Assembly (NCBI GenBank): GCA_018821245.1
Contig: JAHJMO010000002.1
Location: 9,231 to 73,230, forward strand
Source of the DNA: Patescibacteria group bacterium
Lineage (GTDB): Bacteria; Patescibacteriota; Microgenomatia; UBA10105; UBA927
DNA: 64,000 nucleotides
Direction: 5' to 3'
Shown: one piece after another, positions 6,976-13,358 of the stretch
Layout of the letters: each line of letters begins with the position of its first letter
Position numbering within the stretch: the first letter of the stretch is position 1
Program-made: the position numbers and the translations under genes
The notes under the pieces: model-generated
Told to the model about the DNA's origin: nothing
The model's database searches: none
What the model saw: the letters and a program-made list of their open reading frames with translations, nothing else

Positions 6976-7221
6976 TCAGCGCTTGGCCACCTGTGGGCAG
7001 CGACCAAATAAACTGCGAAGTTCGATTTTGGCCTTATTGAGGATTGTTTTGCGTGACGGCGGTAAATTTTTACCGGCGCGGTTTATATAGAAATTCAGCA
7101 TGCTCATGGCGGATTGAAAAGGAGAGGCTTTTCTCCGCAGTGAGTTATCAGCGGAATTTTTGAGAGAAGCAGCAATTTTCTTCGGATCATCCCAAGTAAA
7201 TACCCCATCCTCCAGATCCAA
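6976..7221 (-). CDS. DUF3175 family protein
   Basis: 81 aa; ...DDPKKIAASLKNSADNS.RRKASPFQSAMSMLNFYINRAGKNLPPSRKTILNKAKIELRSLFGR matches the conserved DUF3175 core as recalled. Confidence 0.55.
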   Translation of the reverse strand: MDLEDGVFTWDDPKKIAASLKNSADNSLRRKASPFQSAMSMLNFYINRAGKNLPPSRKTILNKAKIELRSLFGRCPQVAKR

Positions 7222-7310
7222 GGCAACACTGTGCTTCGTGACATAGTCAGACCAGTTTTTTGATATAAGTGGTTAGAGTATAGCTTAAATCTCAAAATTG
7301 GTGTTATGAT

Positions 7311-7808
7311 GTGGCTATGTTAACGCTGATTCTTCCGGGATATTCGCCGGCAAACAGGCAATGGGCTCTAAAAGTAAAAGAAAATTTGAAATTGCCCGGT
7401 GAAGTCATCGTGCATGAGTGGCAACATTGGAGAGACGGAAAGAGTTTCAATCTTAAATACGAAGTAGATCAAATACTGGCAATCATCGGCAAACAGCAAG
7501 TGAATTTTATCGCCAAATCAGTCGGAACGAGAGTGCTCATGGCGCTTTTGCCGAAAATCAATAAGCAGGTGCAAAAAGTAATCCTCTGCGGCATACCGAT
7601 CGATCCGTTAAGGTATGTAAAAGGTATTAAATTGATTGGCAGAGATCATCTGCTCGTTGTCCAAAATTCGCAAGATCCCCTGATGCCGTATAAATTAATT
7701 GAAACGTACATCCATTTAATCGATAAAAAAATAAAAGCGGTTGAAAAGGAAGCCAAAAACCACGACTACCCATATTTTGACGATTTCCAAAGATTCTTGA
7801 CTATCTGA
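7311..7808 (+). CDS. small alpha/beta-hydrolase-fold esterase (putative)
   Basis: Nucleophile elbow AKSVG with Asp (NSQDP) and His (NHDYP) downstream in S-D-H order; ~165 aa; AT-rich codon usage. Confidence 0.4.
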   Translation: MAMLTLILPGYSPANRQWALKVKENLKLPGEVIVHEWQHWRDGKSFNLKYEVDQILAIIGKQQVNFIAKSVGTRVLMALLPKINKQVQKVILCGIPIDPLRYVKGIKLIGRDHLLVVQNSQDPLMPYKLIETYIHLIDKKIKAVEKEAKNHDYPYFDDFQRFLTI

Positions 7809-7825
7809 ATATTCAACTCCTTCTG

Positions 7826-7866
7826 CTACAAAATTTTCACGCCATGGCATGACTTTTTTGTAGTAA
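7826..7866. repeat. palindromic hairpin element copy 1 (ctacaaaaTTTTCACGCCATGGCatgacttttttgtag)
   Basis: Inverted repeat ctacaaaa...ttttgtag around a conserved core TTCACGCCATGGC. A second copy lies at 8617-8660, and the two flank the PaaX-like gene. Confidence 0.7.
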
Positions 7867-7888
7867 CTATTCAGGACAACAATCTCAA

Positions 7889-8593
7889 TTAGGCTATACC
7901 AAAATAATCCCGATAAGGCGAATCATCTTCTAGAGTCGTTGCGACAATATACAATACCTCGTTGCCTACACCATAATATTCTTTCAGAAAAGTCACCTGT
8001 TTTTCACAAGGATATGGATATAACCAAACGCTTTCCTGCAGCTTACAAAATCCTAAGGCTCGCAACGCTTCGCGAAAAACATCGCGCAACCGTTTTTTTC
8101 TGTTTTCCACATCGTAGACAATCAGCCTCCAACGACCGTCCCATTGTCTAGGCTTTTCGATAGATAATTCATCGAGAGCATATTTTAAAATTCTGCGCTT
8201 ACCCGCTTCTGAGAGAACTACTACTTCCTCACCGTTTTGCCCCTTAATTTCAACATATTTTTGCTTATGAAATCGTTTAATCGCTGAACGTAAATACGAA
8301 GGATTATATTGCTTCCAAACTTCATATTTCTTTCGTCGTTCTTCGTCCAAAAAAGGCTTTGCCAATATTGCGGCGGATGGCGAAATAAACGACAATCCTA
8401 CTACACCAGCTAAACCGAGAAACGCAAGAATATGCTTAACTGGAGCGTAGCGGCGATGAATTTCTTCCTGATGAATCTGTTTTGCCAGAATCGTTGATAG
8501 CTCTGCAATTCTTTCATCAGAAGGAACTGTAAGCTGTGTATCTAATCGTAGTCGTTTCTTTTGCTTGATTGTTCTTATTGATACCATAAACAA
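7889..8593 (-). CDS. PaaX-family-like transcriptional regulator homolog with N-terminal TM segment
   Basis: ...VVVLSEAGKRRILKYALDELSIEKPRQWDGRWRLIVYDVENRKKRLRDVFREALRALGFCKLQESVWLYP aligns to the E. coli PaaX segment YSLSDKGLRLTRRAESKIYRAEQPAWDGKWLLLLSEGLDKS...GFGAL.PSLM. The region after the WDG motif also looks Cas2/VapD-like (YDV..R.K..R......G....Q.SV), an observation made from the sequence here. Confidence 0.5.
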   Translation of the reverse strand: MFMVSIRTIKQKKRLRLDTQLTVPSDERIAELSTILAKQIHQEEIHRRYAPVKHILAFLGLAGVVGLSFISPSAAILAKPFLDEERRKKYEVWKQYNPSYLRSAIKRFHKQKYVEIKGQNGEEVVVLSEAGKRRILKYALDELSIEKPRQWDGRWRLIVYDVENRKKRLRDVFREALRALGFCKLQESVWLYPYPCEKQVTFLKEYYGVGNEVLYIVATTLEDDSPYRDYFGIA

Positions 8594-8616
8594 ATTTATC
8601 TTTTAATTCACTTTCT

Positions 8617-8660
8617 TCATACTACAAAATATTCACGCCATGGCTTGGGTATTTTGTAGT
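8617..8660. repeat. palindromic hairpin element copy 2 (tactacaaaataTTCACGCCATGGCttgggtattttgtagta)
   Basis: Same core and inverted-repeat arms as copy 1. Confidence 0.7.
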
Positions 8661-8831
8661 ATACCCTATTTATTAAGCTGGTGACAAGTGACGGCAAGCG
8701 AATAAATGATGACAATAATAATCAAGTAAGTGAGACGAAAGAAAATTTGAGGTATAATATGATCTTAAGTAAGGTTACTTAATAAGTATAGGCAGTTTCT
8801 GATTTCGACTGTCATAAATTGGGATCTTGGC

Positions 8832-8904
8832 TGGGAGATCGTCCAATGGTAGGACAACAGACTCTGGATCTGTTTATCTAGGTTCGAATCCTAGTCTCCC
8901 AGCC
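8832..8904 (+). tRNA. tRNA-Gln (anticodon CTG)
   Basis: Hand-folded cloverleaf: acceptor UGGGAGA/UCUCCCA (U1-A72 and G73, typical of bacterial tRNA-Gln), D-arm GTCC-AATGGTA-GGAC, anticodon arm ACAGA-CTCTGGA-TCTGT (anticodon CUG), T-arm CTAGG-TTCGAAT-CCTAG. CCA is not encoded. Confidence 0.8.
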
Positions 8905-8931
8905 TAGATCCTAACGTGGGATGTACGCATA

Positions 8932-9291
8932 ATGTCCAAGAGGACACTTGTTGCGGAGAATGGCGTTTTAACGTTCTATGGAAAAACTAAATTTTCTTGG
9001 GGAGAATTACTTATTATTGGAGTGACAAAAAAATTCAGTATTGGCGTTGATACGATAGTTCCTCATAAGGAAACCGACAAAGAAGGTACGTATTTAAAAA
9101 AAGGTCGTGTGATGTATTTTGTAATCAAAGGAAGAGGACTATGTGGAGACAAACCAATTAAAAGTGGCGATATCCTGCAGATTAAAGAGGGGCAAAAGAT
9201 AAACATACAAAATAATTCTTCAAAAAAATTAATAATCATAACAATCTATATGCCTCCGTATAACGAAGATAATATTGGATATGAAACATAG
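8932..9291 (+). CDS. hypothetical small protein, possible cupin-like beta-barrel
   Basis: 119 aa, AT-rich, with a weak cupin-like G-x5-PHKE...E...G pattern. First gene downstream of tRNA-Gln in the low-GC island. Confidence 0.3.
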   Translation: MSKRTLVAENGVLTFYGKTKFSWGELLIIGVTKKFSIGVDTIVPHKETDKEGTYLKKGRVMYFVIKGRGLCGDKPIKSGDILQIKEGQKINIQNNSSKKLIIITIYMPPYNEDNIGYET

Positions 9292-9439
9292 CGCAAGACA
9301 GGCAACAAGAATTTACCATACACAACTGTATACTGATAAGAAATTATTTCGGAAAGGCGCGTCGTGGTTAGATAAGCCAGAAAAATAAATTCTTTCAGTT
9401 ATTAAGAATAATTTTCTTGGCAAAAAGAACATTAAAGTT

Positions 9440-9982
9440 TTGGATTTGGGTTCTGGGGTGGGAAGAAACGCAATTCCTATAGCTCAAATGATTGGGAAAT
9501 CAGGTGGAGAAATTATTTGCGTGGATTATCTTGATGTCGCAATTGATAAACTACATGAATATATAGAACTATACAATGTAAGTAAATATATAACAGGCAT
9601 TTTTTCTTCACTTGAAGATTTTGTTATAAACCCAGATGATTACGATTTCATCATCGCCCATAGTGTTTTAACTCACATGGAGAATAAAGAGAAAATGATT
9701 CAAACAATGAAAGATATGGCAAAGGTCACAAAGAAAAACGGTTTTGTGTATATGTATGTAATTACTAATCACAGAGAATTTGATAGAAAGACAGGAAAAG
9801 AACAGAAACTTGAAGATGAGGTAGAGATTGGCTTTGACGAAGCATGTTCATTTCTCAAGAATATTTATAGTGGATGGACAATACTGGCATTAAAGAAACA
9901 TCCGTATGAGGAAACGTTTAACAGACGAGGCAAAGAAATACGTTGGAATGTTGACTATTTGTTATTTATAGCAAAAAAATAA
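9440..9982 (+). CDS. class I SAM-dependent methyltransferase (N-terminally short or truncated)
   Basis: Starts at motif I (LDLGSGVGRN) with an acidic residue after beta2 (VDYLD). A TTG start and an in-frame stop at 9386 leave at most 17 aa upstream of motif I. Confidence 0.6.
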   Translation: MDLGSGVGRNAIPIAQMIGKSGGEIICVDYLDVAIDKLHEYIELYNVSKYITGIFSSLEDFVINPDDYDFIIAHSVLTHMENKEKMIQTMKDMAKVTKKNGFVYMYVITNHREFDRKTGKEQKLEDEVEIGFDEACSFLKNIYSGWTILALKKHPYEETFNRRGKEIRWNVDYLLFIAKK

Positions 9983-9993
9983 CAATAATAATC

Positions 9994-10014
9994 TCTAGAC
10001 CGGCCAGCTCAGCT
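9994..10014. repeat. post-stop inter-cassette motif copy 1 (tcTAGACCGGCCAGCTCAGCT)
   Basis: Shares the consensus AGACCGGCCNGCTCAGMTCAGG with copies after three other consecutive genes. Confidence 0.7.
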
Positions 10015-10018
10015 AAAT

Positions 10019-10516
10019 ATGTCAACAGAAATTCATCAAGATATAAACAAAGCAATACTTATTGTGCGTGATGCAGGGAGATGGCTAAAAGAGAGTGGAA
10101 AAAATCCTTCTAAATGGTGGTTATTAAAAAACCTCAATAAAAAATTTCTTTTAAAGTATGCAAAACCTGAAGAATTTTATGTAGCTTTAGTTGATAACAA
10201 ACCTGCAGCTGCAGCCGTACTTCAGTTTAGTCAAAAAGCTCAAGATTGGAAAAGTATTGATAAAGATAAACTCAAATCCGTTCTTTATATCCATTGGCTT
10301 TGTGTTCACAGAAAATTTGCAGGAAAAGGTTTTCCGAAAATAATGGTTGATTTTGCAGAAAAGTTAGCCAAAGAAAAAAACGTTAAACTTTTACGAGCCG
10401 ACACTAACGCAAAAGAGATGAAATTGAGAAAAATCTACGAGGATTTAGGGTTTAATTTTGTCGGCGTTGAGCAAGAAAATTATCGCCATACAGCCTTTTT
10501 TCAAAAAAAGATATAA
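10019..10516 (+). CDS. GNAT family N-acetyltransferase
   Basis: ...LYIHWLCVHRKFAGKGFPKIMVDFAEKLAKEKNVKLLRADTNAKE....IYEDLGF. GNAT motif A (R/Q-x-x-G-x-G/A) and the overall topology are present. Confidence 0.7.
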   Translation: MSTEIHQDINKAILIVRDAGRWLKESGKNPSKWWLLKNLNKKFLLKYAKPEEFYVALVDNKPAAAAVLQFSQKAQDWKSIDKDKLKSVLYIHWLCVHRKFAGKGFPKIMVDFAEKLAKEKNVKLLRADTNAKEMKLRKIYEDLGFNFVGVEQENYRHTAFFQKKI

Positions 10517-10521
10517 TTGCC

Positions 10522-10545
10522 CTGGATCGGTCAGCTCAGATCCTG
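10522..10545. repeat. post-stop inter-cassette motif copy 2 (ctGGATCGGTCAGCTCAGATCCtg)
   Basis: Same motif family; it has internal dyad GGATC...GATCC. Confidence 0.65.
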
Positions 10546-10601
10546 AAAAAAGACATCTTAGCTCTCAGCCAAAGGTAGATTTCAACAGCTTTGGAGGAAC
10601 C

Positions 10602-10639
10602 CATCCGTATGTGTCTAGCTAGCACACACCGGGTGTGTG
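10602..10639. repeat. 38-bp dispersed element copy 1 containing the perfect inverted repeat CACACACC-G-GGTGTGTG
   Basis: catccgtatgtgtctagctagcacacaccgggtgtgtg is identical to 11900-11937. It also contains the CTAGCTAG palindrome. Confidence 0.8.
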
Positions 10640-10650
10640 AATTATATATT

Positions 10651-11274
10651 ATGTTCAAAAATAAATTATTTTTGATTATTGAAACCGGTTATTTGTTTAT
10701 TTTCCCTTTGATTTTGCTGCGCTTTTATCCAACCTTCATTCACTACCGCATTTATGTATTGATGGGCAGTCTCATTTATATTTTTATTGTGGTTTATTCT
10801 CAGAAAATTACCAGTAAAAATCTCGGGCTTAATCCGAGCAGATTCTTTCCGGCAACCAAAGCGCTTTTTATACCTACTGTGCTTAGTATGTTACTGACTT
10901 TTGTTTTCTTTCAACTCGCAAGAAAGTGGTTAATAATTCCTGTGCTTGTTGAAGAAATTCGAACTCCTTCTATAGCCGTTTCTGTTTTAACTTATATTTT
11001 TGTTTCGGCTCCACTGCAAGAATTTGTGTATCGCGGCTACTTAGTTTCCAGACTGGAAATCGTTTCTCGTAATGCAACTTTTATAAAACTTTATAGCGCA
11101 ATAATCTTCATGGTAATTCACACGCCGTTTTACAATTGGTTTTTACCATTGGGTTCGCTAATTTTAGGCTTGCTCTGGACTGGTAATTTCCTTACATATA
11201 GAAACGTTTATGCCTTAATGCTGAGCCATACTCTAATCGGAGCCACGTATATTATTCTGATGGGTATGAGTTAA
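10651..11274 (+). CDS. CPBP family intramembrane metalloprotease (CAAX protease/Abi-like)
   Basis: Polytopic membrane protein with CPBP motifs QEFVYRG (motif 1), FMVIHTPF (FxxxH, motif 2) and SHTLIG (motif 3). The ATG at 10651 is preferred over the TTG at 10591. Confidence 0.65.
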   Translation: MFKNKLFLIIETGYLFIFPLILLRFYPTFIHYRIYVLMGSLIYIFIVVYSQKITSKNLGLNPSRFFPATKALFIPTVLSMLLTFVFFQLARKWLIIPVLVEEIRTPSIAVSVLTYIFVSAPLQEFVYRGYLVSRLEIVSRNATFIKLYSAIIFMVIHTPFYNWFLPLGSLILGLLWTGNFLTYRNVYALMLSHTLIGATYIILMGMS

Positions 11275-11283
11275 AAAAGGTCC

Positions 11284-11309
11284 CAGACCGGCCCGCTCAG
11301 CTCAGGCCC
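11284..11309. repeat. post-stop inter-cassette motif copy 3 (cAGACCGGCCCGCTCAGCTCAGGCCC)
   Basis: Same motif family, followed by a hairpin ctgacgggcag...ctgcccgtc. Confidence 0.7.
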
Positions 11310-11403
11310 TGACGGGCAGGGGTCTTTGGTATCCTGGTTCACTGCCCGTCGGCTTTACCGAAGGCAATGCAGGTAGGGAATCCAGGCTGGGCAGCAAATA
11401 ATT

Positions 11404-11817
11404 ATGAATACACAAAAAATAACAGCTAAGTTAAAATCATTTTATCCTGGCAGGAAAGTTATAGTTACTGATCCCCTGAATCCGACTGAAATTATTTGTG
11501 AAGTCGAACTAACAGAAGAACATCCGAAGTGGAGTGTTGCTGTTGCGGTCATCGATTCTACTCGTTTACATTACCATAAGCGGTTAACAGAGATATATCA
11601 TATTATGAGTGGTAAATTGAACATGTATCTTAATGGCCAACTGCACCAGCTACAACAAGGCGATATTATAAAAATTCCTCCAAACACACGTCACTATTCC
11701 ATTGGTAATGAAACTATCGTGTATGTCTATGCAACACCTGGTTGGGCGCCTGAGGATCATGTCTTGGTGATTGATAAAAAGGAAATATCCAGAAAGAAAT
11801 ACGACAAGAGGTTCTAG
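11404..11817 (+). CDS. cupin domain protein
   Basis: HYHKRLTEIYHIMSG ... GD.IKIPPNTRHY fits the two-motif cupin pattern; 137 aa. Confidence 0.6.
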   Translation: MNTQKITAKLKSFYPGRKVIVTDPLNPTEIICEVELTEEHPKWSVAVAVIDSTRLHYHKRLTEIYHIMSGKLNMYLNGQLHQLQQGDIIKIPPNTRHYSIGNETIVYVYATPGWAPEDHVLVIDKKEISRKKYDKRF

Positions 11818-11840
11818 ACCGGCCTGCTCAGATCAGGACC
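11813..11840. repeat. post-stop inter-cassette motif copy 4 (tcTAGACCGGCCTGCTCAGATCAGGACC)
   Basis: Here the TAG inside the motif is the stop codon of the cupin gene. Confidence 0.7.
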
Positions 11841-11899
11841 CAGGAAGAATTTTCCGGTTCACGGCCAAAGGCTGATTCTCGACAGTTGTGAAGAGCTTT

Positions 11900-11937
11900 C
11901 ATCCGTATGTGTCTAGCTAGCACACACCGGGTGTGTG
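11900..11937. repeat. 38-bp dispersed element copy 2 (inverted repeat CACACACC-G-GGTGTGTG)
   Basis: Identical over 38 bp to copy 1. Lies about 215 bp upstream of the hydrolase gene. Confidence 0.8.
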
Positions 11938-12153
11938 CAAACAAATTCTCTGCAGTATGAAGCGCAAAGGAGAACCGGTACAGAAGAGAGCGGAACTGAA
12001 GATGGGTAATCCCGATGACGGATAGGAATAGGTCTGGATGTTTGGTAAGATAGTCTAGGTTCATAGGGCAGGACACCTCCTGCCTCTAGTGTAGTATCAA
12101 AAGCTATTTCACTACAACTCTATTTACATACACTTTACTGGGATAGTTTATAC

Positions 12154-12879
12154 ATGAAACAGATTGAATTTTTGGTCAATAATCGAATACTTAAAGGAAC
12201 GCTCTTCTCCTCTCACAACATCAAAGCAAAAAATCCCGCAATTCTCTTTATTCATGGATGGACGAGTGAAAGAGCAAGAAGTTATCAATATGCAAATGCA
12301 CTTACAAAACTTGGCTACATTTCTTTTTTGTTTGATATGAGGGGGCACGGCGAAAGCGAGGGCGATATAAATAGCTATACACCGAAAGAATTCTTTGCTG
12401 ATGTTCTAGCGGCTTATGATTATTTAGCCAAGGTTGAAAATGTAGATAAGGAGAATATCAGTGTTGTGGGCAGCAGCTTTGGATCATATCTCGCAGCGCT
12501 CCTAACCACTAAAAGGAATGTTAAGCGTTTAGCTCTCAGGGTTCCAGCTGATTACCCAAACGAGAATTTTAATAAATCTAAAATACAATCCAGTGGAAGC
12601 AGTAATCCCAAACTGGTATTATGGCGTAAACAAATAAAGAAATCACCGGAAACATTTGCGCTTGAGGCGATTGCTAGTTTTGACGGAGAAATTCTGATAA
12701 TTGAATCGGGGAAAGACAACTCTGTTCCTCACCAAACAATCCAAAATTACATAAACGCAATAAATGACAAAAATAAATTAACTCATATCGTAATGAAAAA
12801 CGCACCGCACAGCATAAAAGAAGGTCCGTTCAGAGACGAGGTAGAAAAAATTTTGGTAGATTGGTTTAAAAAAGGATAG
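12154..12879 (+). CDS. alpha/beta hydrolase (dienelactone hydrolase / esterase-like)
   Basis: HGW oxyanion region, nucleophile elbow VGSSFGS, later Asp/His (ESGKDNSVPH), ~240 aa. Confidence 0.65.
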   Translation: MKQIEFLVNNRILKGTLFSSHNIKAKNPAILFIHGWTSERARSYQYANALTKLGYISFLFDMRGHGESEGDINSYTPKEFFADVLAAYDYLAKVENVDKENISVVGSSFGSYLAALLTTKRNVKRLALRVPADYPNENFNKSKIQSSGSSNPKLVLWRKQIKKSPETFALEAIASFDGEILIIESGKDNSVPHQTIQNYINAINDKNKLTHIVMKNAPHSIKEGPFRDEVEKILVDWFKKG

Positions 12880-12881
12880 CT

Positions 12882-12900
12882 GCACACGCCGGGTGTGTGC
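12882..12900. repeat. degenerate third copy of the inverted repeat (GCACACGCC-G-GGTGTGTGC)
   Basis: One mismatch relative to a perfect dyad. Located between the convergent hydrolase and 12912..13358 genes. Confidence 0.6.
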
Positions 12901-12911
12901 GTTGCATCGCA

Positions 12912-13358
12912 TTAATGGAAGTACTTCTTGATCTTCTCCAGATCTCCGTTGATAAAAATCGGCAGGAGGCCGTAGATTTCTTCTTTGTGAACTAATTCTT
13001 CTGAAATGGGCCGATAGATAAAAATCGGTTTTTTGAGAAAAAAAGCTAAACCCATTTCCATGAGAGTATTTCCTCCGATATATCCTTTCATCCCTTTTTT
13101 CTCCAGATTTACAACCAAAATTGCATCCGCTTGAGTAATCTTGCGGAAATGACCGCGAATGAGGTCTGCCTTTTTGGAATAATCTCCGGGATTACTCCAC
13201 CAGGTTTTGTAGTGAGACACCTGATAATCTCCTTTCTTGCGCATTATGTCTGCGGTTTGGGGAAGCAAAACTTTGAACCCTAACTTGCGCAATCGGTCTC
13301 CAATCTCGACAACCTCCTTAAAATGTACCGCGCTGGAACAAACGGCGATAGATTTCAT
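12912..13358 (-). CDS. nucleoside 2-deoxyribosyltransferase-like / flavodoxin-fold protein (putative)
   Basis: IAVCSS...GDRLRKLGFKVLLP...ADAILVVNLEKKGMKGYIGGNTLMEMGLAFFLKKPIFIY resembles PF05014-type proteins. Confidence 0.35.
   Translation of the reverse strand: MKSIAVCSSAVHFKEVVEIGDRLRKLGFKVLLPQTADIMRKKGDYQVSHYKTWWSNPGDYSKKADLIRGHFRKITQADAILVVNLEKKGMKGYIGGNTLMEMGLAFFLKKPIFIYRPISEELVHKEEIYGLLPIFINGDLEKIKKYFH

Follow-up and report, generated by a model that had tools for sequence, protein, structure and literature searches.

A 38-bp repeat in a Patescibacteria accessory island is probably a REP-type element of a REP/RAYT system

Systems made of repetitive extragenic palindromic (REP) elements and REP-associated tyrosine transposases (RAYTs) have been described mainly in Proteobacteria and in a few other phyla. 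A REP element is understood as a short, non-autonomous DNA unit that combines a conserved single-stranded head with a GC-rich hairpin. The canonical tetranucleotide at the foot of this hairpin is GT[AG]G or CGTC (PMC3733652), and a pattern of vertical inheritance has been described for RAYTs (PMC5581495). Some RAYT groups are known to be low in copy number, and others to have inverted flanks of greater length (PMC5581495, PMC6006769, PMC3733652). Insertion sequences (ISs) of the related IS200/IS605 type carry end hairpins on the same strand, as discussed in PMC2817692. A full-text literature search gave no report of RAYTs in the Candidate Phyla Radiation (CPR), and two large RAYT surveys do not mention CPR lineages. 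Here, we analysed a 64-kb stretch of contig JAHJMO010000002.1 from a Patescibacteria group bacterium (64,000 nt; hereafter the window), which contains three copies of a short repeat based on the 38-mer CATCCGTATGTGTCTAGCTAGCACACACCGGGTGTGTG. We conclude that this 38-mer is probably a REP-type element of a REP/RAYT system in Gottesmanbacteria-like CPR bacteria (Patescibacteria), and most likely a small repeat of the kind copied by a domesticated single-strand DNA transposase, the RAYT.

Two exact copies of the 38-mer are present on the plus strand, at 10602–10639 (copy 1) and 11900–11937 (copy 2), in full agreement with a preliminary description of this DNA; shuffled sequences are expected to contain none. 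Each consists of a 21-nt head, CATCCGTATGTGTCTAGCTAG, followed by a 17-nt hairpin sequence, CACACACC-G-GGTGTGTG, in which two 8-nt arms enclose a single base (8-1-8 dyad). This dyad, CACACACCGGGTGTGTG, is found exactly at 10623–10639 and 11921–11937 and with one mismatch (A to G) at 12883–12899, which makes three sites compared with 0.05 expected in the 64-kb window; no further site was detected there, even when three mismatches were allowed. The third site, previously listed as a degenerate dyad, is indeed one, and it is also more than a dyad, since TAGCT-G is kept in front of it. It forms a short, degenerate REP-like copy (copy 3; 12877–12900, plus strand) composed of TAGCTG, the hairpin CACACGCC-G-GGTGTGTG and a final C, with the first ∼12 nt of the head missing. 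The A-to-G change results in a G·T wobble on the plus strand. As single-stranded DNA (ssDNA), the 38-mer is predicted to fold into a 7-bp stem with a 3-nt loop (−6.1 kcal/mol), leaving the head unpaired.

Copy 1 lies between a GNAT gene and a CPBP gene and ends 11 nt before the CPBP start codon, ATG 10651. Whether it overlaps the 5′ end of the CPBP gene, as had been stated, depends on the start that is chosen: the overlap is seen with the mechanical TTG-started open reading frame (ORF), the only one in the window to overlap the copy, and in the near-identical record L030, where the start was called 42 nt further upstream, within copy 1. In the near-identical metagenome-assembled genome (MAG) records L001 and L002, the gene starts at ATG 10651, past the element. 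Copy 2 was correctly placed in a spacer, the 336 bp between a cupin gene (11404–11817) and a hydrolase gene (12154–12879). Copy 3 overlaps the hydrolase stop codon TAG. The genes on its two sides converge there, and the right edge of a low-GC island falls at this point.

In pattern scans for the element, we detected one stretch in a reference-genome collection (narrow pattern; L004) and nine in a metagenome collection (L005–L013), mostly from 0.1-µm-filtered Hainich groundwater. L004 is a true homologue, as nine further bases agree beyond the searched pattern, and it carries four copies in 8 kb, including short forms that resemble copy 3. An identical 38-mer was present at a different locus in L012, which stems from the same sample as L011, a stretch of the window organism, and is probably another locus of that organism. 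At least one identical copy thus lies outside the island. The preliminary description had allowed for a functionless local duplication if the repeat were absent elsewhere and not bound by any regulator; copies do occur elsewhere, at the L012 locus and in contigs of other organisms.

Two assembled contigs that touch this repeat require caution. L003, a Logan k=31 contig (window 10610–11929), ends within the 38-nt repeat, and L031, a Logan contig from another run, fuses the window spacer across the repeat to the sequence downstream of the L012 copy. We rejected both as circles or recombinants and regard them as artefacts of k=31 assembly, in which contigs either break at the 38-nt repeat or run across it. 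L031 is most simply explained as a k=31 assembly path, yet it shows that both loci co-occur. More generally, the 38-nt repeat can generate chimeric contigs in public assemblies.

In total, 15 copies from eight distinct contexts could be aligned without gaps over ∼38–40 nt, with sharp ends and unrelated flanks, and we detected no homology among the genes neighbouring them. In this alignment, the unit comprises a 21-nt head, (A)TCC-K-N-A-K-GTGTCTA-S-CTA-S, and the 17-nt 8-1-8 dyad. The six inner pairs of this dyad either do not vary or change in a compensatory manner, and its centre base switches between G and C. Conservation of the asymmetric 21-nt head equals that of the dyad, and copy 1 is in register with 24 family members. 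Three short forms (copy 3, or w3, together with L4c and L4a) lack the 5′ part of the head. The CTAGCTAG palindrome, which had been taken as part of each copy, is not a feature of the family, as relatives carry CTACCTAC, CTACCTAG or CTAGCTAC instead. The hairpin arms likewise vary by genome, with complementarity kept (CACACACC/GGTGTGTG, TACACACC/GGTGTGTA, CCCACCCC/GGGGTGGG and TTCACCCC/GGGGTGAA). Across a 25-sequence alignment, 94.5% of the cells pair, compared with 25–77% in slid controls, and compensatory changes affect three pairs with 18 doubly changed cells, a level that none of 500 shuffles reached.

The unit carries a single hairpin at one end only and has no terminal inverted repeats of the type found in miniature inverted-repeat transposable elements (MITEs). 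Furthermore, no direct repeats indicative of target-site duplication were found in the flanks of the 10 full copies. Such duplications are not expected of HUH/Y1 single-strand transposition, which makes none. A MITE had been suggested as the reading for copies placed at random relative to genes and flanked by target-site duplications; the copies do occur in every gene configuration, but these duplications are absent. We therefore rejected a classical MITE.

The family is linked to a transposase gene. In L006, an ORF on the minus strand (775–1452; 225 amino acids (aa)) encodes an IS200-like Y1 transposase (Pfam Y1_Tnp PF01797, E = 1.2e-10) and has one copy of the element on each side. The two copies are inverted relative to each other, their hairpins face outward, and the downstream copy overlaps the stop codon. 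We compared L006 with the contexts of eight further homologues from related CPR genomes. Inverted head-plus-hairpin units bracket the homologous gene in nine out of nine independent loci (L006, L014, L017, L019, L022, L025, L026, L027 and L029), and the downstream unit starts at or just after the transposase stop codon. The upstream heads read GTGTCAA and the downstream heads GTGTCTA; L026 is the exception, with GTGTAAA on both sides. Each of the ten full-length dispersed copies has the downstream head (GTGTCTA). The earlier alternative, in which the window copies mark the ends or targets of a small mobile element, was essentially right in kind, in that the repeat flanks a RAYT-like Y1 gene, inverted, in related genomes. 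In L014 (9931–9971) and L027 (338–378), the upstream flank of the RAYT is double-headed, consisting of head, hairpin and reverse-complement head, and resembles the 'double foot' REPs of Quentin et al. 2018.

The transposases encoded at these nine loci are 223–230 aa long. The L006 protein has 4424 homologues at E ≤ 1e-5, with Gottesmanbacteria and Daviesbacteria as the top named sources. Throughout the family, the HUH motif (PNHxHF) and the tyrosine of RYIHLNP do not vary. The best NCBIfam match was REP_Tyr_transpos with 55.7 bits, under the 80-bit cutoff, and IS200 reached 16.4 bits. The sequence-profile match to PDB entry 4er8 was weak (E = 0.03). An AlphaFold model (mean pLDDT 85, pTM 0.84) found its best PDB fold match in the same entry (E = 6e-7, TM 0.67 on the target), with the IS608 and ISDra2 TnpA structures at 5e-4 or worse. 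Entry 4er8 is the E. coli REP-associated tyrosine transposase (TnpA-REP, YafM) bound to a REP hairpin.

The RAYT-like gene stands as a lone insert between housekeeping genes (recA/recX, dnaJ/nusA, the ileS/ftsZ side and atpC/CBS). In three pairs of diverged genomes, both members carry it at the same site, with an identity in the range of its neighbours: 62% in the dnaJ/nusA pair (DnaJ 73%, NusA 88%, IF2 65%), 83% in the recA/recX pair (RecX 59%) and 94% in the atpC/CBS pair (CBS 89%). This synteny, together with the neighbour-like divergence, is in line with the RAYT pattern of vertical inheritance and not with that of an insertion sequence. The same data bear on whether the window copies could instead be solo ends of an autonomous IS200/IS605-type IS, or derivatives of one similar to palindrome-associated transposable elements (PATEs). 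We consider this quite unlikely. The flanks are inverted in all nine loci, compared with same-strand hairpins in IS ends; the gene is a lone insert at syntenic housekeeping sites and diverges like its neighbours; and its product, at 223–230 aa, compares with ∼125–150 aa for the IS200/IS605-family TnpA chains matched in the fold search. No tnpB was found near the transposase gene. Such an IS would account for the Pfam Y1_Tnp match and for the hairpin-containing subterminal sequences typical of the family, and the fold search matches IS608 and ISDra2 TnpA too, but both the fold and the curated family are nearer to RAYT than to IS200.

The host is an ultra-small groundwater bacterium. Two MAG contigs annotated as Patescibacteria group bacterium, JAHJUP010000033 and JAHJOJ010000011, are 99.7–99.9% identical to the window, whose Era protein is closest to that of Candidatus Gottesmanbacteria (∼75% identity), the group that carries the RAYT-like genes found here. 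In a comparison of syntenic loci, as had been proposed, the near-identical strains L001, L002, L030 and L011 all carry the window copies, copy 2 included. In the next relatives, at 75% Era identity, the island-facing side of Era is not syntenic.

Taken together, the unit, its dispersal, its link to a Y1 gene, the covariation of its hairpin and the fold of the transposase match the published definition of RAYT/REP (PMC2817692, PMC5581495, PMC6006769), and we therefore read the 38-mers as dispersed REPs. By homology with E. coli TnpA-REP and IS200/IS605 TnpA, the RAYT would recognise the hairpin and the bases at its 5′ foot on ssDNA. It would then cleave and rejoin the unit via its catalytic tyrosine, and the unit would be copied or moved without target-site duplication. 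The fold similarity to 4er8 likewise suggests that the REP is bound and cleaved as ssDNA. The cognate RAYT is presumably encoded elsewhere in the window genome. On this basis, the three window copies would be dispersed REPs, two of them intact and one 5′-truncated and decaying, and the presence of both copy 1 and copy 2 may in part reflect a segmental duplication of the spacer at this locus. Any effects on neighbouring genes, for example stabilisation of RNA 3′ ends or a recombination hot-spot, would be secondary and hypothetical.

Several observations weigh against this interpretation. The RAYT gene of the window genome was not found: tblastn gave no match in the 64-kb window, and the NCBI homologues that we looked up belong to assemblies other than those of the window organism. 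Nor did we find dispersed copies in ∼20 kb around four RAYT genes. The copies appear to be few, with three in 64 kb, all within 2.3 kb, and one more locus (L012), and the pattern matches are limited to nine metagenome stretches and one reference-genome stretch. We saw neither presence/absence polymorphism nor an excision junction, and mobility is what we infer. The hairpin foot is CTA[G/C/A] and not the canonical GT[AG]G (or CGTC): the bases 5′ of the stem are CTAG, CTAC, CTAA or CTGG, and only the CTAC copies contain GTAG, which there lies 3′ of the hairpin on the opposite strand. Moreover, the dispersed copies are direct-orientation singlets and not inverted REPIN doublets or bacterial interspersed mosaic elements (BIMEs), with one orientation per multi-copy locus (3/3, 4/4 and 2/2). 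The NCBIfam and PDB sequence matches remain below curated or significant thresholds, and copy 1 or copy 2 could be a segmental duplicate and not a product of transposition. Finally, covariation in a palindrome is expected of a symmetric dimer operator too. As covariation cannot separate a hairpin from such an operator, the case rests on the transposase association and the positional data. Low copy number and longer flanks, for their part, are variations within the known kinds of RAYT that have already been described.

All three window copies are located in a low-GC accessory island (∼7000–13000; 33–43% GC compared with ∼47% in the flanks) that adjoins a tRNA-Gln gene (8832–8904). The six island genes are small, co-oriented and unrelated (cupin, methyltransferase, GNAT, CPBP, cupin and alpha/beta-hydrolase), and the genes flanking the island are housekeeping genes (Era, GluRS, LysRS/AsnRS and RecJ). 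No integrase or recombinase was detected in the window between 3.7 and 22 kb, and scanning a viral collection for the element gave no matches. A run of small, co-oriented, unrelated genes beside a tRNA could suggest that the repeat is a scar of local duplication or recombination, either a duplicated spacer or att-like or integron-attC-like cassette junctions of the tRNA-Gln island. In line with this, the plus-strand segments upstream of copy 1 (10568–10601) and copy 2 (11864–11899) are paralogous (∼84% over a further ∼35 nt) and share a 5′ motif, and the 38-mer contains GTCTAG, with which a TCTAGAC at the start of the spacer could base-pair. A blastn alignment of 10568–10639 with 11864–11937 (83.8% over 74 nt) shows, at the level of sequence similarity, that copies 1 and 2 occupy related spacers, which may have been duplicated locally or belong to a longer unit of this locus. 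However, the 38-mer is 100% identical between the two copies, whereas the adjoining ∼35 nt have diverged to ∼84%, and the 38-nt unit recurs with identical edges in unrelated contexts and organisms. An integrase is lacking between 3.7 and 22 kb, RYYYAAC/GTTRRRY boxes are absent, the spacers fold no better than shuffles, and the 5′ motif is absent from the loci of all other organisms. We therefore judge such a scar very unlikely.

A second repeat in the island, (A/G)GA(C/T)CGG(C/T)CnGCTCAG(A/C)T, occurs at 9997–10014, 10524–10541, 11285–11302 and 11816–11833, in each case 0–13 nt past the stop codon of one of four consecutive island genes, which gives the island a cassette-like look. It is confined to loci of the window organism and absent from those of all other organisms. 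Its apparent hairpin stems are out of register between copies, and hence show no real covariation. With no integrase between 3.7 and 22 kb, no attC boxes, spacer folds no better than those of shuffles and a post-stop motif restricted to the window organism, we rejected an integron attC or cassette array. Between the CPBP and cupin genes lies a GC-rich spacer (11275–11403) that resembles the other spacers in the 5′ motif only. It gave no match in Rfam; on the minus strand, it has a strong predicted fold (−50 kcal/mol, z −2.2).

The positions of the copies relative to genes speak to whether the element acts as an operator. All 15 copies are intergenic or overlap a stop codon at most. They lie in sense orientation between co-directional genes (w1, w2, L4c, L4d, L6a and L8, where w1 and w2 are copies 1 and 2), in antisense orientation between co-directional genes (L4b and L6b), between convergent 3′ ends (w3, L5a and L13) and in divergent regions (L4a and L12). 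Relative to GC skew, their orientation was inconsistent across the short contigs. The preliminary description had noted that 8-1-8 dyads are typical operators of dimeric helix–turn–helix (HTH) regulators and had pointed to the PaaX-like protein encoded nearby (7889–8593). On this reading, such a regulator would bind the dyad as a duplex and control the adjacent island genes. We find this highly improbable. Copies between convergent 3′ ends or antisense to both neighbours do not suit an operator, and the distance to the promoter is not fixed: where a downstream −10 box is evident, it lies at a variable 17–28 nt. No PaaX-like or other regulator recurs near the copies at other loci, the asymmetric 21-nt head is conserved as strongly as the dyad, and the unit is tied to the flanks of Y1 transposase genes in nine loci. 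A dimer site would likewise be a perfect palindrome with covariation between its symmetric arms, the PaaX_M-domain protein encoded 2 kb away would suit such an operator, and L4c, L4d and L8 do lie 17–28 nt upstream of −10-like boxes; around the window copies, however, promoter-like matches are at chance level, and the PaaX-like gene has different 40-nt palindromes of its own on both sides. In annotations of this window, the dyad should not be labelled a regulator binding site.

The palindromes around this PaaX_M/Cas2-like gene (7889–8593, minus strand) are located at 7826–7865 and 8619–8662, ∼25 nt from each gene end. They are related to each other (TACTACAAAAT.TTCACGCCATGGC...TTTTGTAGTA; ∼40 nt, self-palindromic) and unrelated to the 38-mer. 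They could serve the PaaX-like protein as its operator, or else mark where a different small unit ends on each side. In L004 (∼3256) and L008 (∼3012), start codons follow good −10 boxes (TATACT and TATAAT) by 6–7 nt, which hints at leaderless mRNAs in CPR genomes of this type.

That the element is an RNA element, whose transcript hairpin serves as terminator or 3′-end stabiliser independently of mobility, is barely credible: the three non-Watson–Crick cells in the six inner stem pairs are G·T wobbles when the strand carrying the head is read, six copies lie in sense orientation between genes of one direction, and a preprint reports E. coli REPs as regulators in 3′ untranslated regions (bioRxiv 10.64898/2026.03.23.713779), but two copies are antisense to both neighbours, Rfam gives no match, and such a function would be a secondary role of a REP and not an alternative origin. 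As an intrinsic terminator, the element was rejected, because only copy 1 has a T-rich tail, the U-tract is missing after copies 2 and 3, and L4c and L4d in L004 lie just past separate canonical terminators. Similarly, we rejected a known RNA family, as Rfam (gathering threshold and E ≤ 5) yielded tRNA as the only match.

Returning to the REP reading, directly repeated REPs might bound small accessory-gene modules that the RAYT excises and re-inserts as single-stranded circles, an extension that we regard as unlikely, if possible. It would amount to cassette-like gene shuffling by a domesticated HUH transposase, a notion to which we give equally little weight. Copies in the same orientation bracket accessory units of 0.5–2.6 kb in every multi-copy locus, the unit between window copies 1 and 2 being CPBP plus cupin, and the window copies lie within a low-GC island of unrelated small genes; both observations are compatible with this idea. 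As regards the genes concerned, direct-orientation REP copies bracket an EcoO109I-type restriction–modification module (L004 5138–7745), an HxlR regulator gene (L004 3287–3839) and a 99-aa ORF (L005 3377–3963).

If the 38-mer is a REP, the host range of vertically inherited REP/RAYT replicators extends to the tiny, gene-dense genomes of the CPR. This version is compact and low in copy number, with a long head and differing flanks, and may help to work out which bases a RAYT reads.

Among the described systems, IS200/IS605 elements (IS608 and ISDra2) and PATEs share the HUH/Y1 chemistry, the subterminal hairpins acting as ssDNA and the lack of target duplication. In IS200/IS605, a single strand carries the hairpins of both ends, TnpA measures ∼125–150 aa (solved chains), several identical copies are present and tnpB often accompanies them. 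The CPR system, in contrast, has inverted flanks and a single-looking, syntenic gene, and its fold match to IS608 and ISDra2 has an E-value ∼1000-fold weaker than that to 4er8. TIRYTs and other low-copy RAYTs (PMC3733652; PMC6006769 subclass 2.1; Bertels 2017 Groups 1, 4 and 5) likewise have flanks longer than a REP and a moderate or low copy number. The reported consensus of the TIRYT terminal inverted repeat, GGGG[AT][CG]A[CG], is, however, absent from the CPR flanks, which hold a co-varying hairpin.

The closest counterparts are the gammaproteobacterial REP/RAYT systems (REPtrons), namely the REP/BIME elements and TnpA-REP of E. coli and the REPs and REPINs of Pseudomonas and Stenotrophomonas (PMC2817692; PMC3116915). 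Unlike these, the CPR unit has a head of ∼21 nt that is conserved across genomes and ends in CTA[G/C/A] instead of GT[AG]G. The heads on the two sides of the transposase gene are not the same (GTGTCAA upstream, GTGTCTA downstream), and dispersed copies all belong to the downstream type, occurring as singlets with one orientation per locus and without inverted doublets or BIMEs. Gammaproteobacterial REPs often exceed 100 copies (12–140 for the flanking 16-mers, depending on the RAYT group), whereas the CPR genomes apparently hold a handful. The CPR protein, at 223–230 aa, has an extra C-terminal region, stays below the NCBIfam cutoff and comes from a CPR host. In all other respects compared, the two agree: both have a short extragenic unit with an unpaired head and a GC-rich hairpin that undergoes complementary mutations and leaves no target-site duplication; in both, inverted units flank a Y1 HUH gene, often directly after the stop codon; and in both, this gene stands alone among housekeeping genes, is apparently inherited vertically and, in the CPR, encodes a protein whose fold is closest to 4er8.

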